From: a virus
Virus record (IMG/VR): IMGVR_UViG_3300050496_000069
DNA length: 64,000 nt
Direction: 5' to 3' (one strand)
Under the pieces are notes generated by a model, which made no database searches, was not told the origin of the DNA, and saw only the letters and a program-made list of their open reading frames with translations. Numbering within the stretch: position 1 is the stretch's first letter; each line of letters starts with the position of its first letter. Below, one piece after another: positions 3,997 to 62,347 of this stretch. The translations under genes and the position numbers were made by a program.

Positions 3997-4703
3997 GCAC
4001 CCTCCTTCAATTCACGAATTGTCGGACCTTTGATCTCGATCGTTGAGACCGGACCTCCGGCCACATCGTCATCAAAAACGCCGATAACAAGCCTGCCTGT
4101 GTACCAAGCCAGTGTATCGAAGTTGCTCCGACCACGTAGCAACAGAGGACCGTCCTCATGCTGATGATGCCCGTGCACAACGTGAAGGTCGCCGTAGCCG
4201 TCTTCGGCGCCGTCTGGGTAAAGCATCCACGTATTCTTTTGGGCGTCCTGCTCGTCGAGCGGCACGCCGTCCTGAACGCCAGCATGCACAAAGACGCGCT
4301 TGCCATCATTGTGGGTGATTGGAAGGCCAGCCATCCACTGTAGATGGGCAAGCTCTACAACGCTGACATCAATAGCCGCGCCCACCTCGTGCCCGTAGGA
4401 CATCAGCGTTGCGCCGCCGCCGTTTGGAATCCACCACGAGCTTGCCAGACCGGGGGCGTAGCACGCCGCCATCATGATTTCTTCGTGGTTTCCTTGCAGG
4501 CAAATCCACTTCCATCGAGACGGATCGGTGGGCCCAGCCATCAGCGTCTCAATAACCTGCCGGCTTGCCGGACCGCGATCGACGTAGTCGCCAGTAAATA
4601 CAATCGTCCCGCCGCTATGGCTGGATTGCTCAATACGCTTGATTGCGGCGACAAGCAGATCATGTCTGCCGTGAAGGTCCGCTATAATGAATGTTTTGGT
4701 CAA
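3993..4703 (-). CDS. Metallophosphoesterase, Ser/Thr phosphatase family (lambda NinI/PrpA-like)
   Basis: ADLHG, GDYVDRG, LQGNHE and FVHAG motifs; TTG start after RBS GAGGAG. Confidence 0.85.
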   Translation of the reverse strand: MTKTFIIADLHGRHDLLVAAIKRIEQSSHSGGTIVFTGDYVDRGPASRQVIETLMAGPTDPSRWKWICLQGNHEEIMMAACYAPGLASSWWIPNGGGATLMSYGHEVGAAIDVSVVELAHLQWMAGLPITHNDGKRVFVHAGVQDGVPLDEQDAQKNTWMLYPDGAEDGYGDLHVVHGHHQHEDGPLLLRGRSNFDTLAWYTGRLVIGVFDDDVAGGPVSTIEIKGPTIRELKEGA

Positions 4704-4892
4704 CTGTTTCTCCTCAGTGGTGTGGTGGTTGACCTCCAGTTGGTGGCTGGCGGCCATGGTGCAGTTGGGTGTCAATTTAATTTTTTATACGAAATTGAAA
4801 TATTTAAATGGAAAACCTTTAATTCAGTATAGTAATATTAGTTATTGAGTTTTCAATGACTTATACCATAATATTAAAGAAAGAACATAAAG

Positions 4893-4988
4893 ATGAATAT
4901 ACTAATCCGTGAATTCCTACGAACATTATTGCTGTTTGTGCTTGATGAAGTTTGGGAGATGATTAAGCGTTGGTGGGATGGCGATTAA
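4893..4988 (+). CDS. Candidate 31-aa hydrophobic/amphipathic peptide MNILIREFLRTLLLFVLDEVWEMIKRWWDGD
   Basis: ORF read by eye downstream of a very AT-rich patch; stop overlaps the stop of the minus-strand gene. Confidence 0.4.
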   Translation: MNILIREFLRTLLLFVLDEVWEMIKRWWDGD

Positions 4989-6244
4989 GCCACCCCACCC
5001 CGCTTAAGTTGCTCGTTATCATTCGCAGCCGCATATCGCCCGGCTACCATCTCCGGACGCAGCGTGGAGCGCGCCACTTCGCCATATCGGCGCGAGTATG
5101 TGATGACCTTGGCAGACCGACCCGACAGCCAACCGCCGCCAGCGGCATAAGCATCCGGCGCGGCAAGCGTTTCGTGGCGCTCGACATACATCAGCGCGGA
5201 CTTGCGGCCCTCATCGCTGTGCAGGTGGCCGGCATGAGCGAAGGCATATTTCGAAGCGCCGAACATCTCGCGGAACATACCAGCCAGCGTCGCATCGACC
5301 TGAGCCACGCCGCGCTTGTGTCCGTGATGGTAGAACAGCGCCGTGTCGCCCCACTTGTAGGCGTAGTAGAGCATCGGGCTGGTATCGACGGTTACTCTCG
5401 GCTCATTCTCATAGATCGTGGCCAACAACTCGCGCACCCATACCGATGAGGCCGGATCGTGATTGCCAGAAGCCATGACGATGTGAACGTGCTTGTGCTT
5501 CTGTAGAAGCATGTCGATGACAAGGCGCAATGTGCGGATAACGACGCGAACAACCTTATGCAGGCGAGAATCGGCATCAAGGACGTGCTTGTGCGCAGGT
5601 GTGACACTCTCGAGAGCGTCATGGTGTAAAAGGTCGCCGAGCTGCGCGAGAACGGCCGTGTGCGCCTGCGGAGCGCCTGCCACAGCGGCGGCGAACCAAT
5701 CCAGCAACAACTGCTCTGCCAGCCTTAGATCGTAGTCCGCGCCGGTTTCCTCACGATGCGCCAACATACCGAAATGGCTGTCGGTCACAACGAACTGGTT
5801 GAGCAAATCTTCTTCGACGTGCTGCGGCGCGGGCATGATGGTAATGCGCGGCAGGTCTTCCTTGAGGCCGTCGACCATCGCCTTGAAAACGGCAAGCTGG
5901 CCCTCCGCTTCCACAGCCGTCTTTTGCCACTGCTGGATAACGCGCCCCTCACCATCGACGAGGGCCGACACGCCTTTGACCACGTGGCCATTGGGGATGG
6001 CGAATTTTTCGCCGCGCTCCGGAGCCTGCTGAATGAATGTGCCGCTCGGCGTGTTGCTGATGCGGCTGATGCGGAATCCTGGGAGGACAGGATCTGTGCC
6101 AAGCAGGCCAGCCTCAGCTGCCCGTTTGAGGCTTTCAGCAAGCGCCGACTTGCCGATACCAAGTGCTGCGGCCGCTTTGATCAGCGTGCCGTGCTCTCGG
6201 TAGGCGTAGGCTCTTCGGCGGAGTTCTTCGGTGGGTAGAGGCAT
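4985..6244 (-). CDS. Calcineurin-like metallophosphoesterase/nuclease with N-terminal HTH-like segment
   Basis: TDSHFG, LGDLLHHD, SGNHD, YHHGH and GHLH motifs. Confidence 0.75.
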   Translation of the reverse strand: MPLPTEELRRRAYAYREHGTLIKAAAALGIGKSALAESLKRAAEAGLLGTDPVLPGFRISRISNTPSGTFIQQAPERGEKFAIPNGHVVKGVSALVDGEGRVIQQWQKTAVEAEGQLAVFKAMVDGLKEDLPRITIMPAPQHVEEDLLNQFVVTDSHFGMLAHREETGADYDLRLAEQLLLDWFAAAVAGAPQAHTAVLAQLGDLLHHDALESVTPAHKHVLDADSRLHKVVRVVIRTLRLVIDMLLQKHKHVHIVMASGNHDPASSVWVRELLATIYENEPRVTVDTSPMLYYAYKWGDTALFYHHGHKRGVAQVDATLAGMFREMFGASKYAFAHAGHLHSDEGRKSALMYVERHETLAAPDAYAAGGGWLSGRSAKVITYSRRYGEVARSTLRPEMVAGRYAAANDNEQLKRGGVA

Positions 6245-6304
6245 GCAGTCTCCTCGATGTGGTGGTGCTTTTGGTGAAAAAGCAAGCTGGTTAGGCCGAT
6301 AATC

Positions 6305-6334
6305 AAGCTAAACTGTTTTTACAAATTTGTCAAG
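6305..6334 (-). promoter_or_regulatory. Repeated early promoter-operator, copy 1
   Basis: Minus strand TTGACA-17 nt-TAGCTT with palindrome ACAAATTTGT (6321-6330); near-identical copies at 46878 and 59090. Confidence 0.8.
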
Positions 6335-6454
6335 AATCAGTGAGTAATGTATGGGTATGCGACTTGCTGTTTATGTACAAAGATACCGCACGAAAAATTC
6401 CAGCCGAGTGTTTCATGTGCTAACAAGCAATGCCCACTAGCGAAAGGAAGCTAG

Positions 6455-35403: not shown

Positions 35404-36309
35404 TTATGACGCCGCCTTTCGTAGTGCAGCCATCAATTTGTCGTTCGCGGCCATCAGTCGACGTTTTCCTTGTCGTTCGGCCTGCTTGCCTGAGTATCCG
35501 GCCTTGGTCCCGAGATCGGACATGTTCCTCGCTGACCGCGCGGCTTCAAGCGTCGCTCTGTCTTCGTCTTTCAACTCATCAACCGCATCGAACCACTCCT
35601 TGCGATCCGCCATTGCGGCTACGATATCCTGCCACATCATCGAGCCGCCGCCGGCGCATGTGGTCTTTTGCATTCCTAGAAAGCTATCTGCGATCTTGGC
35701 GGAGCCACACGGCAGTCCATCAGGGCAGCGGGTGAATGTAACCTTGCTCATGTCGGTGTTGGCATAAGCCCTGGCCAACTGCGCCTTGGCTTCGTCGTGG
35801 CTTAGATTGATGCGAATACCCTTGTGCCTGCGCCCCGTGACGTATCTGGGCTTCTTGGTGTCCAGCATCTCGGCGAAGTAGTTGTTGCTCTCTATCACCT
35901 CACGTGGGTTTTCGTCACCGCCAAGCGCAACGTCAACCTTGTCCCGTGAACCAAGCATCGCACCTGCTGGCATCCTTGCCGCATATTCCTCAACGCCTCC
36001 GTCGATCTTAAGCCTGAACGCTCTTTCGGTCTGGCTCCCGTCACTGAACCGCAGCTTTCCGATCCGGACAACCTGCCCTGCTGGGTTCCGCTCGACGTCA
36101 CCCGTAGCAACGTTCTTCATGATCTCGGCGACAGATGGCGTTACCAGCCTTTTGCGATCGTGCTTTAGGTCTTCGATTTCGTCGGGGTTGTTGTCGTTTG
36201 CTGGGACGACAGACCAGTTAGTTTGTAGCGGCTCCGGCTGATGATCTGGTTCGGCGGCGAAGCGGCGGACCGCTGCCAGCTGCTCTGCAAGTGATCCATG
36301 TCTAGCCAT
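35404..36309 (-). CDS. Phage protein, candidate late-transcription regulator
   Basis: 301 aa just upstream of the tRNA and packaging genes; C-terminal helical HTH-like segment; function inferred from position. Confidence 0.55.
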   Translation of the reverse strand: MARHGSLAEQLAAVRRFAAEPDHQPEPLQTNWSVVPANDNNPDEIEDLKHDRKRLVTPSVAEIMKNVATGDVERNPAGQVVRIGKLRFSDGSQTERAFRLKIDGGVEEYAARMPAGAMLGSRDKVDVALGGDENPREVIESNNYFAEMLDTKKPRYVTGRRHKGIRINLSHDEAKAQLARAYANTDMSKVTFTRCPDGLPCGSAKIADSFLGMQKTTCAGGGSMMWQDIVAAMADRKEWFDAVDELKDEDRATLEAARSARNMSDLGTKAGYSGKQAERQGKRRLMAANDKLMAALRKAAS

Positions 36310-36348
36310 TCTCGTCTCCCCTGTGGTGAAGGCGCTTGGTGGGCGCCG

Positions 36349-36825
36349 TTACTGCTGCCTGGTGTTGTCGTTATCGGCCAGCCAGCTTTTGACGAGCGAC
36401 ACGGCCTTGCTTGCCGCTTCCCCTGTGGACGTGAACCGCACCACCTCGACCGGATGCCCCAGTCTGACGAGCGATGCGTGGCGCTCGACCTGCGCAGGAG
36501 ATAGCCGGCCTTTACCAACCTTGTTCTCGATCATCCGCAGCTTGCCGCCCTTGAGGTAAATCCGTAGATCGGCTTCGCCTGGCGTCAACCCGGTGGCTAT
36601 AGCATCAGCTTGGGCACGTGGTCCGCGCTTGGCTGAATTCATGTCACCCGCGAGCAGGAACTGCCGTCCATACTCTGGCAAGGCGCGCAGCGCGCGCACC
36701 TGAGCCGCCTGCCCTTCGCTTTCCTTGATGGGTGCGTCAGCGACACTCACCTTGCCCTTGGCGCTCGTGCGGATGACCACGCGCTTCCCGTTGACGCGGG
36801 TGGTTTGGGTGGTGGCTTTTCCCAT
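36349..36825 (-). CDS. VRR-NUC domain nuclease
   Basis: GLTPGEADL..IENKVGKGRLSPAQVERH motif. Confidence 0.8.
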   Translation of the reverse strand: MGKATTQTTRVNGKRVVIRTSAKGKVSVADAPIKESEGQAAQVRALRALPEYGRQFLLAGDMNSAKRGPRAQADAIATGLTPGEADLRIYLKGGKLRMIENKVGKGRLSPAQVERHASLVRLGHPVEVVRFTSTGEAASKAVSLVKSWLADNDNTRQQ

Positions 36826-36932
36826 GGCTGTCTCCTCGTGTGGTGGCTCGCCAGTGGCGGTGGCGACACACATACTTTCCGAGAGAGGAGCGAAAACGGG
36901 TAGTCGATTTGTGAAATATTTTTTGCGCAAAC

Positions 36933-39456: not shown

Positions 39457-39660
39457 TTACCAACCCTGACGACCATACCAGTCGTCAATGTCTTTCTTGG
39501 TCTGTTCCTTCGCATAGCCATAGCGCTCCTGGATCTTGCCTTCCAACTGCTCGCGCTTGCCATTGATGACGTCAAGGTCGTCGTCGGTGAGTTTGCCCCA
39601 CTGCTCCTTAACCTTGCCCTTCATCTGCTTCCAGTTACCTTCTACGCGGTTCCAATCCAT
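39457..39660 (-). CDS. csbD: CsbD-family general stress protein
   Basis: MDWNRVEGNWKQMKGKVKEQWGKLTDDDL..REQLEGKIQERYG. Confidence 0.93.
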   Translation of the reverse strand: MDWNRVEGNWKQMKGKVKEQWGKLTDDDLDVINGKREQLEGKIQERYGYAKEQTKKDIDDWYGRQGW

Positions 39661-39692
39661 TGATATGTCTCCTCTTTGTTGTGTGGGGAGAA

Positions 39693-40035: not shown

Positions 40036-40278
40036 ATGTTAGACCTTAAAGGCCTTCGCACTGGCGCAGCCTTGACCCAAGCAGAATTTGCGGAGGCCAT
40101 GGGCGTTCCTTTGCGCACCTACGAGAACCTAGAGAGCGGAAGGGTGGAGGTTCGTGCGGTTCACTTGAACGCTGCGTACTGGGGACTCATCACGTTGGCT
40201 GCGAAATCCGGACGCGGCCTCGGCTTCCTCCCCTTCGAGGTCGGCGAAATCGTGCGAAAAGTCGCTGGCGGCATTTAA
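40036..40278 (+). CDS. XRE-family HTH regulator
   Basis: LRTGAALTQAEFAEAMGVPLRTYENLESG. Confidence 0.85.
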   Translation: MLDLKGLRTGAALTQAEFAEAMGVPLRTYENLESGRVEVRAVHLNAAYWGLITLAAKSGRGLGFLPFEVGEIVRKVAGGI

Positions 40279-44024: not shown

Positions 44025-45277
44025 GCTGCCACTCCAAACAAATCAGCACGCCGATTGTCATTTGCCGGTACCGCAGCGGGTTCGTCATCCTTGCTAGTCG
44101 CTCCAATCGCCCACGCAATTCGAGCAGTGGCGATAGGTATGTATTCGTCCTCACGCTCGCAGCCGATAAAATGAAAGCCCTCGAAAACAGCCGCCTTGCC
44201 TGTGCTCCCTGAGCCCATGAAAGGATCAAGAATTACGCCGCCGGGTGGCGTGATAAGGCGGCAGAGCCACTGCATAAGCGTGGTGGGCTTTACGGTTGGG
44301 TGGGTGTTGGCGCGGAGCGTTTTGCCTCGCTGATAGGCATTATCCGCAGCGACGGCCGGGCCGTCGCTCGTTGTCGACTTCGTTGCGCTTTCCAGACCAG
44401 CGTCTCTGTCGGCGCGGCTGGCCTTGGCGCAGTAGAAGAAGCGGGCTGCAGATTTGTCTAGTTCGATACGTGGCGCGAAGTGCTCTCGTGCGCCAAAGTC
44501 TCCGTAGACTCCTCGGCTTTCCTTCTTGCCGTGCTCTGGCCCAACGGCACGCTGCTGCCCTGGAGCATCAGGAAACGCTGCCAGCACCTCGTCGCTACCG
44601 TCGTGGATGATGTTGGCGGGCCAGCGGCCAATTGCTACCCGACCGTCGTCTTCTGCGCCCTTAAACTGTCCATAAATTTCATTGCGGCTTGCAGACGGGT
44701 TAAAACGCTCCTCATCTCCAACCCGACAACCATCCACATTGATCGCACCCACGCCCCACTCAGCAAGGTTAGCAGCGACGGTGCCAGTCAAAGGTTTTCG
44801 CGCTAGAGCAATAGGCTCCCATGCTGGCTTGAGTGCGGTACCCCAGCCCTCCCAATCGCCATGCTGGTTGTGAGACTTCGGAAAGCCCGACCCATAAACC
44901 CAGCCAAGTTGATCGCGGATCTCAAATCCAGCATCTTCGATCGCAACAGCCATACGGTGATAGGTTCGCGTGCCAGAGAATGCCACCACGTGGCCGCCTG
45001 GCTTCAAAGCGCGCAGAACTTCGGCCCAGAACTCCTCTGAGAATGCGACCTCTCCTGTATCCCACTGCTTGCCCATGAAACCGGCAGCCCCGCGACCATA
45101 AACGTCTTTGGCCGGGGCGGAACCCGGCTTTCCGAAACGCTTCTGGATCGAGACCAGCGCATAAGGCGGGTCGGTAACGACACTGTCGATCGAGTTGTCG
45201 GCAAGGCCGCGCAACACGTCGCGGCAATCGTTTTGGTGCAGCACGACTCTTCCGTCGTGCATCGAGGTGATGCTCAC
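44021..45277 (-). CDS. DNA amino-methyltransferase (N6-A/N4-C, beta-class order), orphan
   Basis: VVTDPPY catalytic motif precedes HPTVKP and LDPFMGSGSTG SAM-binding motif. Confidence 0.92.
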   Translation of the reverse strand: MSITSMHDGRVVLHQNDCRDVLRGLADNSIDSVVTDPPYALVSIQKRFGKPGSAPAKDVYGRGAAGFMGKQWDTGEVAFSEEFWAEVLRALKPGGHVVAFSGTRTYHRMAVAIEDAGFEIRDQLGWVYGSGFPKSHNQHGDWEGWGTALKPAWEPIALARKPLTGTVAANLAEWGVGAINVDGCRVGDEERFNPSASRNEIYGQFKGAEDDGRVAIGRWPANIIHDGSDEVLAAFPDAPGQQRAVGPEHGKKESRGVYGDFGAREHFAPRIELDKSAARFFYCAKASRADRDAGLESATKSTTSDGPAVAADNAYQRGKTLRANTHPTVKPTTLMQWLCRLITPPGGVILDPFMGSGSTGKAAVFEGFHFIGCEREDEYIPIATARIAWAIGATSKDDEPAAVPANDNRRADLFGVAA

Positions 45278-45386
45278 GTTGGTTTGTCTCCTCAGACTGT
45301 GGTGTTCCCGCCGAAGCGGAAGCCGCGTTGGTGGCGCAGCGGGTGGTGTGGTAGTGTCGCCGGCGGGAATCGGGGTCGGCGAAATC

Positions 45387-46633: not shown

Positions 46634-46830
46634 GCTGCGGCTCCGACTACGCGGTAGCGCGCAACATCGCGGTTATTCCTGCTGCTCCAACGAATCTCAT
46701 CGCTGTATTCTTCGTATTGCATGCCGTTTTTCAAAACGACCTCAAGCAGGACTTCATCATCGACTGGCTGGTTGCCGCCACTCCATTCGATCCATGCAGA
46801 ATCGTCCTGCGGCGATCTTCTCTCGCTCAT
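46630..46830 (-). CDS. Small phage protein
   Basis: WIEWSGGNQPV..VARYRVV; RBS GAGGAG. Confidence 0.6.
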   Translation of the reverse strand: MSERRSPQDDSAWIEWSGGNQPVDDEVLLEVVLKNGMQYEEYSDEIRWSSRNNRDVARYRVVGAAA

Positions 46831-46877
46831 TCTCATCTCCTCAATGTGGTGACGCCATTGGTGTGGCGTAGAGTATG

Positions 46878-46907
46878 AAGCTAAACCGTTTTTACAAATT
46901 TGTCAAG
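46878..46907 (-). promoter_or_regulatory. Repeated early promoter-operator, copy 2
   Basis: AAGCTAAACCGTTTTTACAAATTTGTCAAG, one mismatch to copy 1. Confidence 0.8.
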
Positions 46908-49303: not shown

Positions 49304-49854
49304 ACGAAATTCCAGACCTTGAGATAAACGATTGGATTGCAGGGTTATCTGCGCTCGCCGCTATTCTCGCGGCTGCTTTTGCTTTTTCGTCGGCCCGCCA
49401 AGCCAAAAGACAAGCGGACGCGGTTCTCGGAGACGTAGAGCCTGTATTCAGCGCGTATCAGATGCCAGACGACGGAGTGAATTACCGCCACAGGGCTGCA
49501 ATTGAGATAGTCAATCACAACAGGCTTCCTCTCTATGTGCTGAGTATTAGCCTCGAATTCCCTGACTGGGTGGTCGTCCACCGCGGCGCTGAGGAGGTTC
49601 GCGGTCTCGTTGCCGCGCTATACGGCGACATTATCGAAAAAAGGCGGGAGCACGTTTTTGATGTTCCCTTTCGACTTGCGGGGCGCTTTTCCAGTGATAT
49701 GCCAGCCGTTTCCACAAGCATTTTCAACGTGAACTTCATCGACCAAGATAAGCAAGGCGGATTCCATCTCGGATTTAGGATAAGTTACCGGATGCACGGA
49801 TCGAAGGATGTTCGCATTGCTTTCGCCTCGACCGGCTTCGACGTCTTGGACTAA
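49210..49854 (+). CDS. Accessory single-TM protein; start codon unclear, 5' end overlaps the helicase start
   Basis: WIAGLSALAAILAAAFAFSSARQAKRQ TM/coiled-coil; no clear ATG with RBS. Confidence 0.5.
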   Translation: MRDRQEDCQPSLTNNRKRRFLPLPGSGEVGAYEIPDLEINDWIAGLSALAAILAAAFAFSSARQAKRQADAVLGDVEPVFSAYQMPDDGVNYRHRAAIEIVNHNRLPLYVLSISLEFPDWVVVHRGAEEVRGLVAALYGDIIEKRREHVFDVPFRLAGRFSSDMPAVSTSIFNVNFIDQDKQGGFHLGFRISYRMHGSKDVRIAFASTGFDVLD

Positions 49855-50369
49855 CCCGCCTCCCGCAGCAGCCCAAGCACCCTCGCCCGCTGCTTGATGA
49901 CGATTTGGCGCACGCGCTCTTTGGTAAGGCCATGGTCATTCCCAATGGCCTCCAGCGTCTCACCCATTGCCCTACGCATCAGCATCGTGCCATTGCGGCC
50001 TTCCAGAAGAGAGACTACGCGCGACAAGTCGGTGCCCTCCTCCTGATGCGGATCGGTTGAGCCCGGCAGTTCTTCAAAGGCCGAGAGACTGCAGACTTCG
50101 GCAGAGCGCGACTTGGTGGAGTTGGTGCGAACGAACTCCTGCGCTGTCCCCCGAACGCAGAGGACGGCCCACGTCCAGAAGGTCTCAAGGCGGCATTCGC
50201 GATGCCGGCGCAACATGACGACCATCGCCGACTGAAACAGTTCATCGGCGGCGTCTTCGTTCTTCGTGATCTTTCGCGCCAGTCTCCGCAAGGCCGGCTC
50301 GTAAGCCAACAGCTTGCGGTCGAACTCGGGACTGCGCGGGTTGTTATCATTCGCCGCAATAGGTGGCAT
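49851..50369 (-). CDS. Sigma70-family (ECF-like) sigma factor
   Basis: Region 2 LRRLARKIT..ADELFQ..TFWTW; region 4 LEAIGNDHGLTKERVRQI. Confidence 0.7.
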   Translation of the reverse strand: MPPIAANDNNPRSPEFDRKLLAYEPALRRLARKITKNEDAADELFQSAMVVMLRRHRECRLETFWTWAVLCVRGTAQEFVRTNSTKSRSAEVCSLSAFEELPGSTDPHQEEGTDLSRVVSLLEGRNGTMLMRRAMGETLEAIGNDHGLTKERVRQIVIKQRARVLGLLREAG

Positions 50370-50491
50370 CGTGGTCTCCTCATGTGGTGGTTCAGGCGTT
50401 GGTGGCACCAGATTTCTCTTTGTGGATATTGATCCGTTGAGCGTTTAAACGCCCTTGGGTTGTGCTAGCGTCCCAGCAAAGTGAGGGACCC

Positions 50492-52469: not shown

Positions 52470-53521
52470 CAGACCCTCATAGGCATGCAAACGAGCGTAA
52501 GCCCCTCAAAGCCATCCGACGTGATCAGCCCCGGCGTGCCGCCATCCTGCAAGGCCAGCTTGACCGGCCCAGACGGCAACACGTTCAGCACGTCGCGGAC
52601 ATAGGCGGCGTTGAAACCGATATCCATTGGCTCGCCGCTATATTCCGCCTCGACTTCGTCATTCGCCGACGCCTCGCCTGCGGCCACAGCAAGTGCGATA
52701 CTGCCAGGTGCGATGCTGAACTTCACGGCGCGCCCACGTTCAGACGAAACCGTCGACACGCGGTCGGATGCCTTCATCAGCGCATCGCGATCGACCGTAA
52801 CGACACGCTCGTTGTTCTTGGGGATAACGCGCTCGTAGTCAGGGAACGTGCCGTCGATCAGCTTCGACGTAATGCGCACGTCATCCGACACGATGCGTAT
52901 TTTCTGTTGGCTTACCGCAACCTGCACCTTGCCCTTTGGAAGCAGGCTGACGGTCTTGCGCGGCACAATAATGCCCTCGAAGGCAGGCAGATCAGGGCCG
53001 TAGTGACGGCCCAGACGATGGCCATCGGTGGCTACGGCTTCCGACTTGCCACCGCCCTTGAAGAACACGCCGTTCAGATAATAGCGGGTTTCCTCGGTCG
53101 AAATGGCGAACGACACTGGCGCGAACAATCCTGCCAGATCGATCTCGAATTCAGCGTCGAACTTGTCGTCGCCGAGCGTTGGGAAGTCACCTGCTGACAG
53201 CGTGGCAAGAGAAAAGCGCGACCGTCCGGACTTCACCAGAAGCTTGTCACCATCCAGTGTCATGGTGATGTCGCCGGTTGCCTTGCGTGCGATGTCGTTG
53301 AGCAGCTTCGCGCTGACGCAGATGTTGCCTGGCTTGCCGACCTCAGCAGGCACGCCTGCGGTGGCGATAATGTCGAGGTCAGTTGCGGTGATCGCAAGGC
53401 CCTCACCTGCGGCCGCAACTTGCACGCTCGACAGGATGGGAATGGTGGATCTTGCCTCGACGACCTTCGTTGTGGCCGCAAGCGCACGCGTCAGGTCTTC
53501 CTTGTGGATGACAAGGTGCAT
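52469..53521 (-). CDS. dnaN: DNA polymerase III beta sliding clamp (phage copy)
   Basis: ATDLD, STEETRYYLNGV, ATDGHRL, SKLIDGTFPDYERVIP and LVCMPMRV motifs. Confidence 0.95.
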   Translation of the reverse strand: MHLVIHKEDLTRALAATTKVVEARSTIPILSSVQVAAAGEGLAITATDLDIIATAGVPAEVGKPGNICVSAKLLNDIARKATGDITMTLDGDKLLVKSGRSRFSLATLSAGDFPTLGDDKFDAEFEIDLAGLFAPVSFAISTEETRYYLNGVFFKGGGKSEAVATDGHRLGRHYGPDLPAFEGIIVPRKTVSLLPKGKVQVAVSQQKIRIVSDDVRITSKLIDGTFPDYERVIPKNNERVVTVDRDALMKASDRVSTVSSERGRAVKFSIAPGSIALAVAAGEASANDEVEAEYSGEPMDIGFNAAYVRDVLNVLPSGPVKLALQDGGTPGLITSDGFEGLTLVCMPMRV

Positions 53522-53586
53522 GGATGTCTCCTCGGTGATTTGTGGTGGTGCCTGCCGTGGTGAGCGGCAGGCGTGGTCTGTGGTGG

Positions 53587-54423
53587 TTAGGCTGCGAAAG
53601 AAAACGGCGACCGCTTCTTGGGCGGCTCGTAGCCAATCGGATATCCGCAGCCATCCTCACCTTCATCGTACCGGTTCTCGTCGAACTGCTCGCCCTTCAG
53701 CTCAGCGATTTTCTTGAACAGACCAATCGCACTGCCCGGCTGCTCTTCGTTGTCGTTTGCGACCCACGCATCCTTGCCTTCTTCATCAACGGTCAACGCC
53801 GAGATTGCGGCATCGATCGAGTAAGGAGTGCCTTCCGTGCCGAGAACGACCTTCTCGCCATAAGCGCCGCCGATCTGATCTTTGAGTTCCTCCCAGGTGT
53901 CGATCTTCACCTTACGGCCAGCCAGCGCGATCTTGAGGATATCCCCCTTGCCGATCGTGTAACCGCGATCCTGATACTTGAGGACGCGTGTCGCTGACGC
54001 CAGTGGATAGCGAGTGCCAGGATGGAATCGCAGAAAGCGTTGAGAGTTGTGTTTCAGGAAGTCGTCGTGGAACGAGAATTCGTCAGTGTCGAAATCCAGT
54101 GCGCCCATCACGACGGTGAAGTCGAAAGCGTCAAAGATGTCCTGCGCTGTCGGGAAGAAATCGAAGTGCATGAACTGGATGGGAGTGCCGCCATTGTCTG
54201 TAAATGTCACGGCGCGCTTTGTCGTGGATACGCACCAGAAGCCATTCTCGTATGCGTCCGCGACAGCATATTCGAAGGCCTCACGGCTCTTGAAGTAGAC
54301 GTCGACGTCGTTGATGTCTCGATTGGTGAATACGCTCGTCACCGCTCCGCCGGCAGCGAATGCCCCGGGGATCGGGTAGCATTTCTCCGTGATCTTTCTG
54401 GCTTCCGCCTTATAGTTCGTCAT
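53587..54423 (-). CDS. Nucleotidyltransferase related to the CCA-adding/poly(A) polymerase head domain
   Basis: AGGAVTSVF..NDVDVYF (GG..DxD) and FDFTVVMGA (compare DFTINAMA). Confidence 0.6.
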   Translation of the reverse strand: MTNYKAEARKITEKCYPIPGAFAAGGAVTSVFTNRDINDVDVYFKSREAFEYAVADAYENGFWCVSTTKRAVTFTDNGGTPIQFMHFDFFPTAQDIFDAFDFTVVMGALDFDTDEFSFHDDFLKHNSQRFLRFHPGTRYPLASATRVLKYQDRGYTIGKGDILKIALAGRKVKIDTWEELKDQIGGAYGEKVVLGTEGTPYSIDAAISALTVDEEGKDAWVANDNEEQPGSAIGLFKKIAELKGEQFDENRYDEGEDGCGYPIGYEPPKKRSPFSFAA

Positions 54424-54481
54424 GAAAATCTCCTCTTATGGTGAAGTAGCGGGCCGCTGGTGAGGCAGCCCGCGTCGATGG

Positions 54482-55039
54482 TTACTTGCTGCCCCAGGGC
54501 CGGCGCGTCGTGCCTGAGGCCGCAGCGGCAGGCTTGTTGTCATTGCTGGCGGCAGTGCGGCGGTTGTCGTTGGCTGCGACTGGCTGTGGTGCGGGCTGGT
54601 TGACGTCGACAGCCGGGGCTGGGACGTTTCCTTCATCTTCGAAGAAGTAGCGCTTAATCTCGGCGCGCGCTGGGTAGCCGTTCTGCGCCTTGCCAAGGCC
54701 GATCTTGGCAGTGAACGCCAGGAAGTGGAGCTCTTCACTGTCCTCGACCGCAGAAACACCAACGGCGCGGCAAAGGCTGGCGAACTGCTTCTGCCCGATC
54801 TCCTGGGCTTGCGGGTTGGAGTTTTCGAGATTGTAGGTCGTGAAGAGCTTGCGGCCCTTCAGGCTTTCAGGCTCGATAACAACCATAGTCGTCTTGAGGA
54901 TGGTGCCGTTGCCCGCCTTCGTCGGGCCGACGTCACTCGCCTCGATCTCGAGCTTGTAAATGCCGTTTGGAAGTTCGGCATAGTCGTTCTGCTGTGTGTC
55001 ATGTGCGGTCGCATCAAATCTTTGACCAAGTCCTGCCAT
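54482..55039 (-). CDS. DUF669-like ssDNA-binding/recombination protein
   Basis: YAELPNGIY..GRKLFTTYNL..IGQKQFASLCRAVG; follows the AAA gene. Confidence 0.75.
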   Translation of the reverse strand: MAGLGQRFDATAHDTQQNDYAELPNGIYKLEIEASDVGPTKAGNGTILKTTMVVIEPESLKGRKLFTTYNLENSNPQAQEIGQKQFASLCRAVGVSAVEDSEELHFLAFTAKIGLGKAQNGYPARAEIKRYFFEDEGNVPAPAVDVNQPAPQPVAANDNRRTAASNDNKPAAAASGTTRRPWGSK

Positions 55040-55072
55040 GCGTAGTCTCCTTCAGTGGTGGTGTGGTGGTGG

Positions 55073-55711
55073 TTAGAGAAGTCGCCCTTGCTCGCGAGCG
55101 AAGTCTAATGGGTGCTTTGCTGCCTTCCTAAGATTGCAGCGAGGGCAAAGTATCTGGAGGTTCTCTTTGCCGTTTGATCCTCCACGCGAGAGCGGCATTA
55201 TGTGGTCAACATGCCGCTCTGTGGTTTTGCGAACCGACGCGCCACATTCTGCGCATCGGTATTTCTGTCGTCGCAGTATTTCCGCTACGTCTTCTTTCGT
55301 ATGTTGCCCGGAACTCCCTCGACGCAGAGCTCTACGATTTCGGTCTGAAACAAGCCTGATCTCCTGCGCGCGTTCAGGGTTAGCCTCTACCCACCTCCTG
55401 GCTCGTCGAACGTTGTTCGCTGAGACTTCCGGCTTGGCGTTGGACCTTCTTGCATACTCACGTTTTAGGTCAGGATTGTTCTGCGCCCACTTCCTCAAGC
55501 TGGTGATCCTGCTTTCGCGCTCCTTTTCAGGATTTGATGCAGCCCACTTCCTTCGATGTTCTCGCTGGCAATCAGCGCATTGACCGGTGCTGGCGTAACG
55601 GCGAGCTACATGGCCTTTCTTACAAGGGAGGCCCGTGAAGAAATGCCTTGCACCTATCTCCCTCGCCTTCTCCTTTGAAGCAGGAAGATTGTCGTTGGCC
55701 ACATCGAGCAT
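55073..55711 (-). CDS. Free-standing HNH endonuclease
   Basis: FFTGLPCKKGH..CADC; QKYRCAEC..HVDHIMPLSRGGSN..LCPRCNLRK. Confidence 0.85.
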   Translation of the reverse strand: MLDVANDNLPASKEKAREIGARHFFTGLPCKKGHVARRYASTGQCADCQREHRRKWAASNPEKERESRITSLRKWAQNNPDLKREYARRSNAKPEVSANNVRRARRWVEANPERAQEIRLVSDRNRRALRRGSSGQHTKEDVAEILRRQKYRCAECGASVRKTTERHVDHIMPLSRGGSNGKENLQILCPRCNLRKAAKHPLDFAREQGRLL

Positions 55712-56478
55712 CAGACACCGGTGGGCGCCGGAAAGTACTTCGAGAGCTCGACGTACCCGTTGCCTTTTTTGTAGGGGATCGAATCCGGCATGCTGTATCG
55801 ATTTTTCGAATTGAAGCCCGCGCCCTCGACGAGGTGGATCTGACGTTCCTTGCCGCCTTCAGCATGAGCGACCTTCGTCTGGCGTGCGACCTCCTTCTCC
55901 TTGATGGAGATGCGGTAGTTCATGAAGGCGACGATATCCGACTTCTCGCGAACAAGGGCGTTGGCGCGCTTGTGCAGCTTCGGCTGATACCGGCTGTACG
56001 GGTCTGTGACAGGGCTGTCGAACCGGACGATTTCAGGATGGGCCAGCATCACAACGCAAATACCTCGCCGAGTAAGGGCGGAAACTGCCGCCATAAGCTC
56101 GTTCCATTCTGTATCGGTTTCAATGTAGCCACGACCGTAGCCAGGCTCCTCGATCGAGGCGACGCCGATGCGGCGGCAGGTTGCGCCCCATACAAGCGGC
56201 TCGAGGCCATCAAGGCTATCGAGAATAACCGTCTTGCGGTCGTGCTCCTCAGTGAGCAGTTCGCCGAAGACGTCGAGCAGCTCGTCGAAGCTCTCGATGG
56301 TGCCGGGCGTGACGAGTTCAACGTCAGACGGTGTGCGCTCGCCTTCTGTCGGTAGATAGAGCGCGTCAGGGAATTCGGCGGCAAGGCTGGTTTTGCCGAT
56401 ACCGTCGACGCCATAGAGCAAGATGACCGGTGGGTCCGCTCTCTTCGTCGACTTCAGGGACGAAAGTGAAATAGCCAT
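55711..56478 (-). CDS. AAA-family ATPase (Sak4-like recombination NTPase)
   Basis: YGVDGIGKTS, TVILDSLD and VMLAH motifs. Confidence 0.85.
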   Translation of the reverse strand: MAISLSSLKSTKRADPPVILLYGVDGIGKTSLAAEFPDALYLPTEGERTPSDVELVTPGTIESFDELLDVFGELLTEEHDRKTVILDSLDGLEPLVWGATCRRIGVASIEEPGYGRGYIETDTEWNELMAAVSALTRRGICVVMLAHPEIVRFDSPVTDPYSRYQPKLHKRANALVREKSDIVAFMNYRISIKEKEVARQTKVAHAEGGKERQIHLVEGAGFNSKNRYSMPDSIPYKKGNGYVELSKYFPAPTGV

Positions 56479-56567
56479 AAGGCCTCCTCAGTGTGGTGGT
56501 GCAGTGAAAATGATGGCGGCGATGTAGGCGGCGGCTGCAAAGACAATGAGCCACCGCCAATGAGTGA

Positions 56568-56795: not shown

Positions 56796-56995
56796 CAGAA
56801 CGCTCCCAACCAAACACCTACGCCGTGGATGATGCCGACAGGTGCGACGACGCAGCCAAAGGCCAGCAGGATCCACGCACTTGCCTGAATACAGACATAG
56901 ACGTGCGTCACCCAAGCGGCGACCGCGGCGACAACAGCGCTGAGCGGCACGAGCGTGATCAGCGTCGCGCCGAGGATTGCGAAAGCATCCTTCAT
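56795..56995 (-). CDS. Small 2-TM membrane protein
   Basis: 66 aa, RBS GAGGAG. Confidence 0.6.
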   Translation of the reverse strand: MKDAFAILGATLITLVPLSAVVAAVAAWVTHVYVCIQASAWILLAFGCVVAPVGIIHGVGVWLGAF

Positions 56996-57055
56996 AAAGG
57001 TCTCCTCAATGATGTGGTGAAGTGCGGCTGGTTGGTAGCCAGCCGCTAGCGCTGG

Positions 57056-58171
57056 TTAGGCTGCTTGCTCGAAAGCCTCGACAGCCCGCTTTGCTGATAG
57101 AAGGTCAAGACCCGCAACAGCCCGCAATTCCTTGATCGCGTCGATCTTGAGGCCCAGTGCAGCCATATTCTGCCACTTGTGGTCATAGACCGGCGCGGCT
57201 TCTTCATGCGTCGCCGTCAGCGTGAACACGCCGAACTTCTTGCCCTTGTATTTCGCGGCAAGGCGAGTGGCTTCCTTGTGCGCTGCGACTTCGGAGGTAT
57301 GGACATGCGGTGTCGAAGATGGCTTGGGCTGGCCGCTTTCGATCAGGGCGACGATGGCGGTGGTGGTGGGAGTGGTGAGCTCGAAGAACTTGGACAGCCA
57401 GCCGTTCTCGGTCGATCCGCCATCATCGCGCTTGACCTTCACGCTCTCGTATTCGCGCCCAAAGTGATCGGCGGCCACGACATATTCCTTTCCGGCAGTG
57501 AATTGTCCAGGATAGCTCTCAAGGCATTTCACCCGATCGCCAACCTTGAACTTCGGCTTGGCGTTGTCATTGCTGGGCTTCGCCACAGGCTCGTCGATCC
57601 ATTCAGCGATGAGTGGCGGAACGTCATATTCGCTGGTGCCGTCGTCGCGCCAGATGTCGCCGCCTTTAGTGAATACGCTGCTGCCGCCTTGCTGCTCCCA
57701 CGGATGCTCAACTGTCTGCGACCACCGTGACATCGGCCCGACCTTCCGGCCATCGCGGGTCTTGTAGAAGCGACCAGCCTCGATCTTGAGGGTGGCGGGC
57801 TGTTCTGGCGTTGCGGGGGCGAGGATCGGTTCGAGCTCATCAGCGCGCCAAACATAGCCACCCGCGTTGTCTCCACCCCATGTCTGCACACCGTTCCCTA
57901 CCTTGTAGGCCTCTTTGGTCACAGTGAACTCAAGACCAATGGCTGCGGACTTGTGTTGAAGTTCGGCCCGCGCAACCCGCACCCGCTCGCCGACGCGCGG
58001 CTGCCAGGGTTCGAAGCGCTTGGCAAACATCGCGGCGTCACCGCAATATATGAGGTCTTTGCGCACAGCGCTGACTTGGCAAACGTCGTCCTTCTTATAG
58101 TCCATCGGCGCACCGCGATTGTCTATGACGCGAACCCAGTCACCAACCTTAAATCTCTGCTCACCCATCAC
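57056..58171 (-). CDS. Multidomain phage protein: SH3-like repeats and C-terminal ribosomal bL12-like motif
   Basis: FKVGDWV, PRVGERV and FKVGDRV repeats; KIDAIKELRAVAGLDLLSAKRAVE. Confidence 0.6.
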   Translation of the reverse strand: MMGEQRFKVGDWVRVIDNRGAPMDYKKDDVCQVSAVRKDLIYCGDAAMFAKRFEPWQPRVGERVRVARAELQHKSAAIGLEFTVTKEAYKVGNGVQTWGGDNAGGYVWRADELEPILAPATPEQPATLKIEAGRFYKTRDGRKVGPMSRWSQTVEHPWEQQGGSSVFTKGGDIWRDDGTSEYDVPPLIAEWIDEPVAKPSNDNAKPKFKVGDRVKCLESYPGQFTAGKEYVVAADHFGREYESVKVKRDDGGSTENGWLSKFFELTTPTTTAIVALIESGQPKPSSTPHVHTSEVAAHKEATRLAAKYKGKKFGVFTLTATHEEAAPVYDHKWQNMAALGLKIDAIKELRAVAGLDLLSAKRAVEAFEQAA

Positions 58172-58694: not shown

Positions 58695-59035
58695 GCCGCC
58701 ACCCCACGCAGAGCATACTCATTGACTGCCTGCCCGGCCTGCAAGTCAGCATCGTCGATGTTGTCGTTCGCAGCGACGCGCGGCAGCGAAACTGGCATGT
58801 GGCCGGATAGCGTAGAGCAACCGCCGTTGTGCGGCGCCAAGTGCGTCACGCGGTCGGGATTGTTGTCGTTGGCCGGGATGAAGGTGCGCTGCTTCTGCAG
58901 GCCGTATGTGCGCCGCAGCCGCTGGTATGCGGCCATTGGCTTGACGTTGTGTCTGGCGGCAATATCTGCGACGCTCTCGCCGTTCTCACGGCGCGCGTGC
59001 ATATCCGCCAGCATAGTGCTGGTGATAAGCGTCAT
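58691..59035 (-). CDS. HTH protein, first gene of the main leftward early operon
   Basis: GESVADIAARHNVKPMAAYQRL. Confidence 0.65.
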   Translation of the reverse strand: MTLITSTMLADMHARRENGESVADIAARHNVKPMAAYQRLRRTYGLQKQRTFIPANDNNPDRVTHLAPHNGGCSTLSGHMPVSLPRVAANDNIDDADLQAGQAVNEYALRGVAA

Positions 59036-59089
59036 GTCGTCTCCTCTGAGTGGTGGTCGCCTTGTGGTTGACAAAGCGACAGGGTTATG

Positions 59090-59119
59090 AAACTAAACTA
59101 TTTTTACAAATTTGTCAAG
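59090..59119 (-). promoter_or_regulatory. Repeated early promoter-operator, copy 3
   Basis: AAACTAAACTATTTTTACAAATTTGTCAAG; divergent from regulator gene 59139. Confidence 0.8.
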
Positions 59120-59138: not shown

Positions 59139-59741
59139 ATGCCTGAAGTTAAGTCGCGCCTCCTGCAATCGATACTGAAAGAACAGAAGCGGAGAGCCGT
59201 AAAGGATCGCGCTGTGTACGAAGAGCTAGGCGTGCCTCAGCAGACCTACAGCACCTGGAAGGCTGGCGTCATTCCAAGACCTAGGCAATTCCCGGCGATT
59301 GCCGCCTTCCTGGGTGTCTCCGAAGATGACGTGGCAGAGATGGCTCGCGAGGCGGCAGAAACCGCTCCTTCCATCACGCCTATAACGGTTGCCCGCACCT
59401 ACGGCAAAATCTCCGACCGCAAGGCTGGCAAGTTCAAGTTCGAGCCCATCAACGACGGCCGCAAACGCATTCCCGAAGGCCGTTACGCCATCGTCATCGA
59501 CACGAAGGTGATGGAGCCAGTCTTCCACGTTGGCGTGAAAGCTTGGCTCGACCCTTCCCGCTGGCCCGCCCTTGGTGACGACGTGCTTGCGCATTCGGGT
59601 GGGTTTGCTTGGATCGGGCGATTCGAAGGCATGAGCAACGGCGCTGTTCAACTGGGCCGCTACGATGGTTCGCAGCTTGAGGTGAAAAACGTGGAAGCTG
59701 TTCATGTCATCGTCCTTTCGGAGCGGGTGGTTACGGCGTAG
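59139..59741 (+). CDS. XRE HTH regulator with degenerate S24-like C-terminal domain
   Basis: ELGVPQQTYSTWKAG HTH; YAIVIDTKVMEP where GxSMxP is expected. Confidence 0.7.
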   Translation: MPEVKSRLLQSILKEQKRRAVKDRAVYEELGVPQQTYSTWKAGVIPRPRQFPAIAAFLGVSEDDVAEMAREAAETAPSITPITVARTYGKISDRKAGKFKFEPINDGRKRIPEGRYAIVIDTKVMEPVFHVGVKAWLDPSRWPALGDDVLAHSGGFAWIGRFEGMSNGAVQLGRYDGSQLEVKNVEAVHVIVLSERVVTA

Positions 59742-59785: not shown

Positions 59786-59819
59786 TTGACAATTCCTACA
59801 AATTTGTGTAGGAATTGTC
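59786..59819 (+). promoter_or_regulatory. 13-bp inverted repeat containing ACAAATTTGT; candidate promoter/operator
   Basis: GACAATTCCTACA-AATTTG-TGTAGGAATTGTC; TTGACA-17 nt-TAGGAA. Confidence 0.6.
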
Positions 59820-61122: not shown

Positions 61123-61172
61123 TTCTCTTGTACCCAGCAAACCAAGCTGGCCACCACAAGAGGAGATACACC

Positions 61173-61526
61173 ATGTACAGACCACGTCCCGAAGAGTTTG
61201 ACGATATCGCCGTTGCCGCCCAGTCCGACGAGCCAATGAAGCGCCCGGACCACAAGGCCAAGAAGCACGGCAAGCCCAAGACGAAATATGAATACATGCG
61301 CCGCTTCCCCAAGAAGCCGCGCAACGGCGAGGAAGTCGGCGGCGGCCACTTCGTATTCCGCCGTGGCGACAGCACTGGACGCATTCGTCCCTGCATGTGG
61401 CCCTTCGAACACCCCTCCTATGATTCTGCGCTGGTCGAAGCCGCGCGCCTGCACAAAGAGCATGGCGGCATCTTTGAAGTCTTCGTTCGCGTCGGCAGCG
61501 TCGAGGCGCTTGAGGCCGGCGAATGA
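61173..61526 (+). CDS. Phage hypothetical protein
   Basis: Start MYRPRP after CACCACAAGAGGAG. Confidence 0.7.
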   Translation: MYRPRPEEFDDIAVAAQSDEPMKRPDHKAKKHGKPKTKYEYMRRFPKKPRNGEEVGGGHFVFRRGDSTGRIRPCMWPFEHPSYDSALVEAARLHKEHGGIFEVFVRVGSVEALEAGE

Positions 61527-61660
61527 GCGTGGCAGCGGCGCCCGCGCCGACCACCGTTCAGCAGATCATTCTCTCGCATCACGCCGACCTGATGAAGGAC
61601 ATCGCCGGTTTTCTGGCGCTGTCGCTCTTCATCGCGGCTCTGCTCATCTGGGCTTACTGA
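61523..61660 (+). CDS. Small membrane peptide (45 aa)
   Basis: MSVAAAP..IAGFLALSLFIAALLIWAY; ATGA overlap. Confidence 0.5.
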   Translation: MSVAAAPAPTTVQQIILSHHADLMKDIAGFLALSLFIAALLIWAY

Positions 61661-61661
61661 G

Positions 61662-61952
61662 ATGTCGACCGCTGTTAAGCCGCCCTTCATGGGCGAAGCG
61701 ATGCAGGAGTTCGTCTTCTGCATCGAGAAGTACGGCGAATACACTTTCGACAACGACCATCGCGCTCGTCTGATTGCCGAAAGCAAATCATTTGAAGAGT
61801 TGCGCGCCCTTCTCTCAGCTTTCGAAAACCTGGTCGACGGCGAGGCTAAGGAAGAGACGTTGGGCGATCTCGCTCGCCACCTTGGCACTCCAGTACCTCG
61901 GCTAGATCGCATGATGCGCTGGCCGTGGGACGAAGAATTCGAGCCAAACTGA
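61662..61952 (+). CDS. Phage hypothetical protein
   Basis: 96 aa in the rightward operon. Confidence 0.55.
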   Translation: MSTAVKPPFMGEAMQEFVFCIEKYGEYTFDNDHRARLIAESKSFEELRALLSAFENLVDGEAKEETLGDLARHLGTPVPRLDRMMRWPWDEEFEPN

Positions 61953-61990
61953 AACACCACCCACCACCACACCACATCGAGGAGACAATC

Positions 61991-62347
61991 ATGTCCAGAA
62001 GACGCGACACTACCTACACCCCTGCCCCGTATGCCGGCGACGGTCTTGAAGTCGTAGCCAACATTTCATCTGAAACCGCACCGACTACCATTCTCGTGGC
62101 GGTCGCCAAATGGCACGAGCGCAGGAAGGACGGTCGTAATCGCGTCATCGCTTCAAGCTTCGTGCTCTCGTCGCGGCGAATGATAATGGGAGGAGAAGAT
62201 GAGGACGACAGACATATTCGTGGTGGGGATTCACCGAAGGAATCGCCTGATTTCCTCGCAGACAACTGCCCGACTAGCCCACCTGCGGGTCTAAAAACCG
62301 AAGTTTTATTTTGCATAGCACTAAAGGCGCCCCAGCGCCGGGAATGA
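61991..62347 (+). CDS. Phage hypothetical protein
   Basis: Start MSRRRD after a CACCAC-rich leader and GAGGAG. Confidence 0.5.
   Translation: MSRRRDTTYTPAPYAGDGLEVVANISSETAPTTILVAVAKWHERRKDGRNRVIASSFVLSSRRMIMGGEDEDDRHIRGGDSPKESPDFLADNCPTSPPAGLKTEVLFCIALKAPQRRE

Follow-up and report, generated by a model that had tools for sequence, protein, structure and literature searches.

A repeated leader of hairpin, C/A tract and Shine-Dalgarno sequence before non-structural genes of a 16-3-like rhizobial prophage

Background

The closest described counterpart of the element considered here is the start-associated sequence (SAS) of mycobacteriophages, with its extended form (ESAS) of cluster K, described in 2011 (PMC3203893) and also surveyed in 188 genomes (PMC12699233). 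The SAS is a short asymmetric repeat that embeds the core of the Shine-Dalgarno (SD) sequence and sits 3-7 nt before the start codon, with a strong preference for ATG. In the respective phages, each genome has 11-19 copies, nearly all of which point the same way; they are found only in the non-structural half, in front of unrelated gene families, and the host genome is essentially free of the repeat. An inverted repeat precedes about half of the copies, and some of the conserved positions are unable to pair with 16S rRNA. The ESAS has inverted repeats of 17 bp; compensatory changes are lacking in their conserved arms, and the authors preferred an explanation by DNA binding (PMC3203893, PMC12699233). 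The function of the SAS was still unverified in 2025. Here we describe a repeated leader, composed of a hairpin, a tract of C and A only and the SD sequence GAGGAG, in a 64,000-nt stretch of virus DNA (IMG/VR record IMGVR_UViG_3300050496_000069; the whole of this stretch is referred to as the window). This leader resembles the SAS in the embedded SD, the placement before start codons with a preference for ATG, the copy number, the orientation, the confinement to non-structural genes, the near-absence from the host, the presence of an upstream inverted repeat and the positions that cannot pair with rRNA; an earlier inspection of the sequence (the original prediction) had picked out the CACCAC...GAGGAG part of it before 14 non-structural genes.

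The single parts of the leader have relatives outside the phage world as well. Stem-loops at the 5' terminus, such as that of ompA, shield bacterial mRNAs from 5'-end-dependent decay and thereby stabilise them. Viral leaders that are CA-rich and lack G, for example the omega leader of tobacco mosaic virus, reportedly act as translation enhancers in bacteria, Agrobacterium among them. As for sequences next to the SD, ACA and C/A-rich elements can increase translation as much as 100-fold in Salmonella, with no strict requirement on spacing, and it is these elements that the small RNA GcvB targets for repression (PMC3879156).

Judging by the sequence, the leader is apparently a phage-owned start signal, a counterpart of the mycobacteriophage start-associated sequences that is independent of them and structurally richer. 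No description of it was found in the searchable literature on 16-3-like phages, a scope that leaves out older subscription papers. The hosts of the phages that carry it (Agrobacterium, Sinorhizobium, Brucella/Ochrobactrum) have good genetics, and the classical phage 16-3 is itself a member of the group, which enables a direct test of whether phages carry a translation-start code of their own for early genes. In addition, the compact leader cassettes may serve for gene expression in Rhizobiales.

Results and discussion

Anatomy of the leader and the genes that carry it

The pattern CACCAC-N1-8-GAGGAG has 13 matches in the window, at 12 separate sites, as compared to 0.03 expected, and no shuffled sequence reached 13; GAGGAGA alone is threefold over-represented. 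All 14 starts listed in the original prediction bear the motif in the orientation of the gene, 12 on the minus strand and two (61173 and 61991) on the plus strand, the copies at 54423 (CACCAT) and 55039 (AAGGAG) being weaker variants. To these, two members were added, at 36309 (CACCACA-GGGGAGAC) and, as a variant, at 39660, so that the total comes to 16 copies, 15 strict and one variant (Table 1). Without exception, the leader is oriented as the gene that follows, and its distance to the start is 5-7 nt (rarely 4-10).

The order of the modules is hairpin, C/A-only tract, GAGGAG (mostly extended to GAGGAGAC), 5-7 nt, and ATG, the latter being the start codon in 107 of the 115 copies of the Rhizobiaceae type (see below). 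The upstream hairpin, present in 12 of the 16 window copies, consists of 4-9 G+C-rich pairs of variable sequence that close a loop of, usually, 7 nt (CCACCAA, CTACCAA, CTCACCA or a close variant). The tract, 7-25 nt in length and usually CACCACA, begins 0-5 nt after the hairpin and lies at a variable distance, about 0-7 nt, from the SD; in the same 115 copies, G and T make up 0-5% of the bases found at -9 to -5 relative to the SD. When the tracts of the window were read by eye, ACA was found inside 14 of the 16, and the longest tracts turned up among the four hairpin-less copies. Often, a further CCACC comes directly after the stop codon with which the upstream gene ends.

The leaders are distributed unevenly over the genes, which were called roughly for the purpose of this analysis. 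In the structural block (about 10.4-33.3 kb), none of the 31 genes has a leader, as compared to 15 of the 63 genes outside it that have a strict one (Fisher p = 0.002), and the difference persists when only genes preceded by a spacer of 30 nt or more are counted (0 of 16 structural versus 15 of 39 other genes, p = 0.0025). The predicted absence of the motif before capsid, portal and tail genes is thereby borne out. The leaderless non-structural genes fall into two groups, namely, genes that are translationally coupled to the preceding gene and genes encoded on the other strand (repressors, HNH genes, accessory cassettes).

A leader of one phage lineage, not of its hosts

The window contains the genome of a temperate siphophage integrated in a bacterial chromosome; the virus contig (64,189 bases) spans window positions 285-64000 in reverse orientation, and most genes are on the minus strand. 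By its gene content, the phage is a 16-3-like rhizobial prophage. Specifically, counterparts in Rhizobium phage 16-3 were found for the terminase, exonuclease (p044), phosphatase (p047), VRR-NUC protein (p103), sliding clamp (p081), Sak4-like protein (p077), Cas4-like exonuclease (p085), helicase (p088), primase (p101) and the C repressor. The Sak4-like protein is 93% identical to its counterpart in a prophage of Agrobacterium pusense LMG 25623 (locus L122), and identities of up to 97% are seen for other shared early proteins.

A search with the Sak4-like protein yielded 35 prophage loci from Agrobacterium, Rhizobium, Neorhizobium, Shinella, Brucella/Ochrobactrum, Devosia and others, and 171 leaders (168 distinct) were collected from the window, phage 16-3 and 34 loci (L122-L155). 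The architecture recurs in most of the 34 scanned loci, with leader-bearing prophages in Agrobacterium, Rhizobium, Brucella/Ochrobactrum, Shinella and Devosia; phage 16-3 has about 14 copies of the cassette and phage NV1.1.1 has 13, none of them in the structural block of NV1.1.1 and none noticed in that of 16-3 either. Two types can be told apart: in the Rhizobiaceae-type phages, CACCACA is followed at loose spacing by GAGGAG-AC, and in the Brucellaceae-type phages the C/A tract ends in ACAC, which abuts GAGGAG. In a scan of IMG/VR, most multi-copy matches came from contigs that measure 58-66 kb, as do phages of this group, and single matches elsewhere are, by estimate, at chance level.

The phage-specificity of the leader was assessed by running the strict pattern, along with a reversed-pattern control, over four host genomes of 5-6 Mb. 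Inside the prophage lie 13 of the 14 strict matches in genome G001, about 9 of 11 in G002 and about 16 of 21 in G004, and the strict matches that remain outside equal the control count; G003 (Brucella pituitosa) has only four strict matches, one of which is located in the prophage stretch that was retrieved. When the pattern was relaxed to nine C/A, any base and GAGGAG, the matches in G001 and G004 were again mainly in the prophage, and one out of five was in G002. A ribosome-binding habit of the host was rejected as the origin of the motif because, save for the relaxed matches in G002, both patterns occur almost only within the prophage. Hence, with no leader before the structural genes and control-level matches in the host chromosomes, the motif is far from being equally frequent before late or host genes.

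Despite the parallels with the SAS, the two elements are unrelated in sequence, and the hosts are alphaproteobacteria here and actinobacteria there. The 13-bp SAS consensus GGGATAGGAGCCC, with up to two mismatches allowed, has a single match in the window, with two mismatches and inside a structural gene, as against 1.1 expected. What is conserved upstream of the SD also sets the leader apart from the SAS: it is a tract of C and A only, and its spacing is loose.

The hairpin as a probable RNA structure

Stems of at least 6 bp around an ACCA loop were found in 57 of the 168 distinct leaders, as compared to 2.1 in dinucleotide shuffles, and these hairpins comprise 37 different stem sequences. 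When 22 hairpins, a set picked for having stems, were aligned, 89% of the cells paired and all nine pairs showed changes on both sides, whereas slid controls gave 26-48%. An unforced check made use of the orthologous leader of the clamp gene, taken from every locus with structure disregarded: in a plain MAFFT alignment of 17 such leaders, RNAalifold recovered the hairpin, with compensatory changes in six of the seven pairs. To judge from these alignments, selection clearly maintains the pairing of the stem. This is the reverse of the ESAS, in that here the arms vary and co-vary and the loop is conserved, as in an RNA hairpin.

Two other kinds of hairpin-bearing element were considered. The copies do not conform to mobile palindromes of the REP (repetitive extragenic palindromic) type, because the copies have just the loop and the 3' tract in common and diverge in their arms. 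A tRNA-like minihelix, mimicking a substrate of RNase P or the CCA enzyme, was rejected since anything from 0 to over 5 nt separates the stem from CCA and, by eye, only about 4 of 12 hairpins fit.

Placement behind promoters

Four leaders (6244, 46830, 59035 and 61173) are located directly behind promoter-like sites, no more than a few nucleotides from the predicted transcript start, and three of these four sites are copies of a repeated TTGACA-ACAAATTTGT-TAAAA promoter. The same arrangement is seen at a mapped promoter: immediately after the annotated PL promoter of 16-3 come a hairpin, ACCACCACC, GAGGAGAC and ATG. The pairing of promoter and leader occurs four times each in 16-3 and NV1.1.1, and also in L151 and L154.

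The perfect palindrome ACAAATTTGT has four copies in the window, three of them (Table 1) embedded in a promoter-like TTGACA...TAAAA(A)C sequence directly before a leader and the fourth at 59798-59807. It probably represents a second class of operator/promoter, and the helix-turn-helix protein encoded at 59139-59741 is, perhaps, its regulator. Another palindrome, CCACCA-AAA-TGGTGG, occurs in two copies about 30 bp apart (39800-39850), both in a gap without coding sequence that lies upstream of the small XRE-like gene at 40036-40278; it includes the ACCACCA of the leader plus its complement, and no link to the leaders was found.

A possible function in translation initiation

To the view that this is a start-associated RNA leader owned by the phage lineage, the three modules of which serve efficient translation by host ribosomes, we would give an even chance. 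Under this scenario, lytic genes of the early and middle classes would have the leader as their 5' untranslated or intercistronic segment. The hairpin, which opens the promoter-proximal transcripts at their 5' end and elsewhere lies between cistrons, would protect the RNA end and insulate the start from the neighbouring coding sequence, with its 7-nt loop displaying ACCA. The single-stranded C/A tract would be a C/A-rich translation enhancer or a ribosome landing site placed before a strong SD, GAGGAG, at 5-7 nt from the ATG, and the modules jointly would provide each independently initiated early or middle gene with efficient translation. The repeated leader doubles as a recombination joint for the gain and loss of gene cassettes. 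The original idea of a cis-element for the translation of early genes thus stands in general terms, the leader being start-tied, co-oriented, phage-specific and conserved; the antitermination and the partnership with an ANDN peptide that had been proposed along with it found no support, as discussed below.

The contribution of the SD itself is straightforward: the 16S rRNA of the host ends with ...GGATCACCTCCTTTCT, with which GAGGAG pairs well. However, the tract extends beyond the 3' end of the rRNA and the conserved AC after GAGGAG is unable to pair, so that the leader is more than an extended SD; an extended pairing with the 16S tail was rejected on the same grounds. Inside the 16S rRNA, sites complementary to ACCACCA and CCACCAA are present near positions 1187 and 221, but a 7-mer match in about 1,500 nt, with six motifs tried, is near chance; presumably, both sites are base-paired in the 16S structure. 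In predicted folding, genes with a leader have start regions that are open to a somewhat greater extent (median 0.56 versus 0.44 unpaired, p = 0.005). That the tract is needed merely to keep the SD open was nevertheless unsupported, accessibility being unchanged when the tract was randomised; the tract would, therefore, act via its sequence rather than by mere avoidance of structure.

The analogy that suggests such an action is with the enterobacterial C/A-rich/ACA enhancers (PMC3879156), in which a G-poor C/A tract with ACA is likewise found immediately upstream of the SD and at a flexible position, so that the loose spacing between tract and SD in the leaders matches the non-strict spacing of the Salmonella elements. 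This likeness would explain a strong contribution to initiation that is independent of the SD. Unlike the leaders, those enhancers are features of single host genes, lacking a family-wide consensus and a hairpin with a matching loop, and they are silenced by a known G/U-rich small RNA, no such partner being found here. For the hairpin, the analogy is with stabilisers of the ompA type: in the promoter-proximal copies, it is G+C-rich and no more than a few nucleotides away from the predicted or annotated transcription start. Unlike such stabilisers, most leader copies are internal to operons, and a simple stabiliser would not need a conserved loop.

Several points weigh against this scenario. 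The predicted unpaired fraction of the SD is 0.47 in native leaders and 0.48 in tract-randomised ones. Host genes almost never use such leaders, which is odd if the host ribosome alone reads them. The roles of enhancer and stabiliser are assigned by analogy with gamma-proteobacteria, the enhancer effect being known from enterobacteria and the leaders belonging to phages of Rhizobiales. Finally, the AC after GAGGAG in the Rhizobiaceae type, the ACAC before the SD in the Brucellaceae type and the invariant ACCA of the loop have no obvious ribosomal partner. Conserved positions without a partner hint at a specific reader, although they could also result from common descent or from homogenisation of the copies.

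A role of the leader in transcription initiation, as a promoter for phage sigma factors, was rejected: the distance from loop to tract varies with stem length, and a start site at that place would, by our reasoning, fall inside the SD.

A possible dedicated reader of the leader

The conserved positions that flank the SD in a lineage-specific manner without being able to pair with 16S rRNA lead to a second explanation, which we consider possible but doubtful. A dedicated trans-acting factor, either an RNA-binding protein of phage or host or a G/U-rich small RNA, would bind the leader by reading ACCA in the loop together with the tract next to the SD and would switch the early and middle set jointly, at the level of translation or stability, in the manner of CsrA (which uses a loop and an SD-proximal site) or of RegA of phage T4. 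A reader of this kind would account for the conservation of the loop over varying stems and for the restriction of a phage-specific motif to lytic early and middle genes, with none before late genes and accessory genes of the opposite strand. It is also consistent with the distance between the CCA of the loop and that of the tract, which is mostly 12-19 nt, and with the longer C/A runs of hairpin-less leaders (median 13 versus 9 nt), which contain about three CCA units, the same total as in the hairpin forms with the loop counted, a comparison confounded by length. However, no candidate for the factor was found. Pfam and PHROGs revealed no RNA-binding domain among the 20 early proteins scanned, no free G/U-rich RNA complementary to the motif stands out in the window, where Rfam recognises two tRNAs only, and the spacing is loose relative to both the SD and the hairpin.

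The protein that co-occurs best with the leader motif, P0001, is found in many of the loci. In the window, it is encoded at 61173-61526 (+) and consists of 117 aa; its N-terminal part is rich in Lys and Arg, and it has a conserved domain that reads GGGHFVFRRG...GRI...WPFEH. Structure prediction (mean pLDDT 73) gave a fold similar to entries that bear the names WGR-domain, DUF2188 and DUF1902, and there was no match to a solved structure. In phage 16-3, which is viable, the counterpart of P0001 is only a truncated, unannotated remnant just downstream of PL; this speaks against the dedicated factor, and P0001 was rejected as a universal N-like factor for the same reason. The P0001 domain recurs in the 370-aa protein encoded at 57056-58168 (phrog_17352).

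With similar hesitation, one can envisage a phage-wide translational regulon, in which the factor, encoded by the phage or being a host component altered by it (for example, via the Ser/Thr kinase described below), reads ACCA twice. If this were the case, it would turn all the early and middle genes up or down together at the switch to late development; the leader would then be a two-site RNA switch of a new specificity, which would also suggest a purpose for the start-associated sequences of other phages.

Recombination at the leaders

A third explanation, which we regard as unlikely, is that the conservation is mainly evolutionary, with the leader being a shared gene-boundary linker that has been spread by recombination and carries translation signals along without any special regulation; the Sak4-like annealase and the Cas4-like exonuclease of the phage could help recombination between copies. 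One case of cassette exchange is, indeed, documented in detail. A 278-aa gene of unassigned role (53587-54423, minus strand) is present, together with one leader, in the window, in L125, L128 and others, and is absent in the nearest relatives, L122 and L123, as well as in a related prophage that was met, as contigs with small shares only, in public RNA runs. In the latter, the joint spans 53533 to 54439, from the SD of one leader to that of the next, and the leader of L122 and L123 consists of the hairpin half of the window leader at 54423 and the tract/SD half of the leader at 53521. To judge by these junctions, this cassette was gained or lost through a crossover within the C/A tract. In addition, the same hairpin, GCGGCTGG/CCAGCCGC, is found in identical form before different genes in different prophages. 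The chimeric leader and the shared hairpin thus indicate that leaders serve as crossover points for cassettes.

These findings, however, do not make the leader a mere linker. Divergence of the stems by compensatory changes, with the loop, the composition of the tract and the SD kept fixed, points to selection on RNA structure rather than simple copying, and the leaderless state of late and opposite-strand accessory genes would be left unexplained. The similarity blocks between relatives often end within leaders, but block ends do not discriminate because such blocks end at gene boundaries anyway. Recombination is taken here as a documented consequence of the repeated leader and, perhaps, a reason for its spread, but not as its primary function.

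Improbable roles in transcription elongation and DNA binding

It is highly improbable that the leader acts on transcription elongation, be it as a nut-like site that loads an antiterminator (antitermination had been suggested originally) or as a C-rich, G-poor site for loading of Rho that couples early transcription to translation. The resemblance to the nut sites of phage lambda is that a hairpin and a linear element follow directly on early promoters, including the annotated PL of 16-3, and that a small basic protein is encoded beside one of them, by the first gene beyond the repressor gene; the tract, moreover, is C-rich and devoid of G. Unlike in lambda, the order of the elements and the loop type are different, with 7-nt ACCA loops that do not resemble boxB; there is no boxA at the leaders; about 16 copies per genome stand before individual genes, each tied to a start codon at a fixed distance, instead of one per operon; and the basic protein is dispensable in 16-3, where it is a remnant. 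A loading site for Rho requires roughly 70-80 nt, and the tracts are far below this length. Antitermination, accordingly, is not borne out. As to intrinsic terminators, these were rejected because the hairpins are followed by the C/A tract and not by a T run, and no leader site was among the terminator-like sites of the scan.

That the leader is a binding site for a repressor or activator on double-stranded DNA at many gene boundaries, comparable to the stoperators of cluster A or the ESAS of cluster K, is barely credible: the many asymmetric, co-oriented intergenic copies in one phage lineage and the inverted repeat would fit, but variable arms around a constant spacer (the loop) are the opposite of a dimeric operator and, along with the fixed register relative to SD and ATG and the strict co-orientation with genes, indicate an RNA element, and the window has separate conventional palindromic operators in ACAAATTTGT and CCACCA-AAA-TGGTGG.

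The individual leaders and other features of the window

Table 1. The sixteen leaders of the window, with the composition of each from 5' to 3'
Leader	Coordinates	Strand	Composition and context
NinI-like phosphatase gene, start 4703 (TTG)	4701..4750	-	4-bp hairpin, loop CCACCAA; 15-nt C/A tract; GAGGAGAA
Exonuclease gene, start 6244	6242..6284	-	6-bp hairpin, loop TTCACCA; CACCACCACA; GAGGAGAC; behind TTGACA...ACAAATTTGT-type promoter at 6321-6330
Added member, start 36309	36307..36347	-	5-bp hairpin, loop CCACCAA; CACCACA; GGGGAGAC
VRR-NUC gene, start 36825	36823..36866	-	6-bp hairpin, loop CCGCCAC; CCACCACAC; GAGGAGAC; 16-3 orthologue p103 also has a leader
Variant, start 39660	39658..39688	-	no hairpin; 14-nt C/A-only tract without CACCAC; GAGGAGAC
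Methyltransferase gene, start 45277 (GTG)	45275..45340	-	6-bp hairpin, loop CCACCAA; second small hairpin; AACACCACA; GAGGAGAC
Start 46830	46828..46869	-	6-bp hairpin, loop CACCAA; CACCACA; GAGGAGAT; directly behind promoter copy 46894-46903
Sigma-factor-like gene, start 50369	50367..50409	-	4-bp hairpin, loop CCACCAA; AACCACCACA; GAGGAGAC
Sliding-clamp gene, start 53521	53519..53572	-	8-bp hairpin, loop CTCACCA; CACCACCACAAA; GAGGAGAC
278-aa gene, start 54423	54421..54473	-	9-bp hairpin, loop CTCACCA; CACCA; GAGGAGAT
DUF669 gene, start 55039	55037..55074	-	no hairpin; 20-nt C/A tract; AAGGAGAC
Sak4-like gene, start 56478	56476..56501	-	no hairpin; CACCACCACAC; GAGGAGGC
Start 56995	56993..57046	-	8-bp hairpin GCGGCTGG/CCAGCCGC, loop CTACCAA; CACCACA; GAGGAGAC
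First gene of rightward early operon, start 59035	59033..59080	-	9-bp hairpin, loop TCAACCA; ACCACCAC; GAGGAGAC; directly behind promoter copy 59106-59115
First gene beyond C-repressor gene, start 61173	61134..61175	+	5-bp hairpin, loop AAACCAA; CCACCACAA; GAGGAGAT; behind TTGACG-17-TATATC promoter-like site
Start 61991	61952..61993	+	no hairpin; 25-nt C/A tract; GAGGAGAC

The tetrapeptide ANDN, often as AANDN or PANDN, occurs at 17 sites in 14 gene calls between 2338 and 63103, all of them non-structural and none in the structural block. The suggested link between this peptide and the leader disappears once gene length and direction are controlled for: when only genes that run in the main direction and encode 100 aa or more are compared, the counts are 7 of 11 versus 6 of 11 (p = 1.0).

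The early region also encodes a Hanks-type Ser/Thr protein kinase (37443-38519, minus strand; Pfam Pkinase, E = 1e-31), the start of which overlaps by one base the stop of an upstream 153-aa gene (38519-38980). HNH endonuclease genes at 55073-55711 (-) and 42593-43414 (+) sit between conserved replication genes and are probably homing-type insertions; the former shares one base with the stop of the Sak4-like gene. In phage 16-3, a second gene of the sigma-70 family, p087, is located between the sigma-like and helicase genes; at this place, the window has about 550 nt (49304-49850) with only small, poorly scoring open reading frames, and the start of the window helicase gene has no recognisable SD. 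At the left edge of the prophage there is a tRNA-Lys(UUU) gene (336-411, plus strand), likely the site of integration, and the phage carries a tRNA-Met(CAT) of its own at 35183-35259 (-), as does NV1.1.1.

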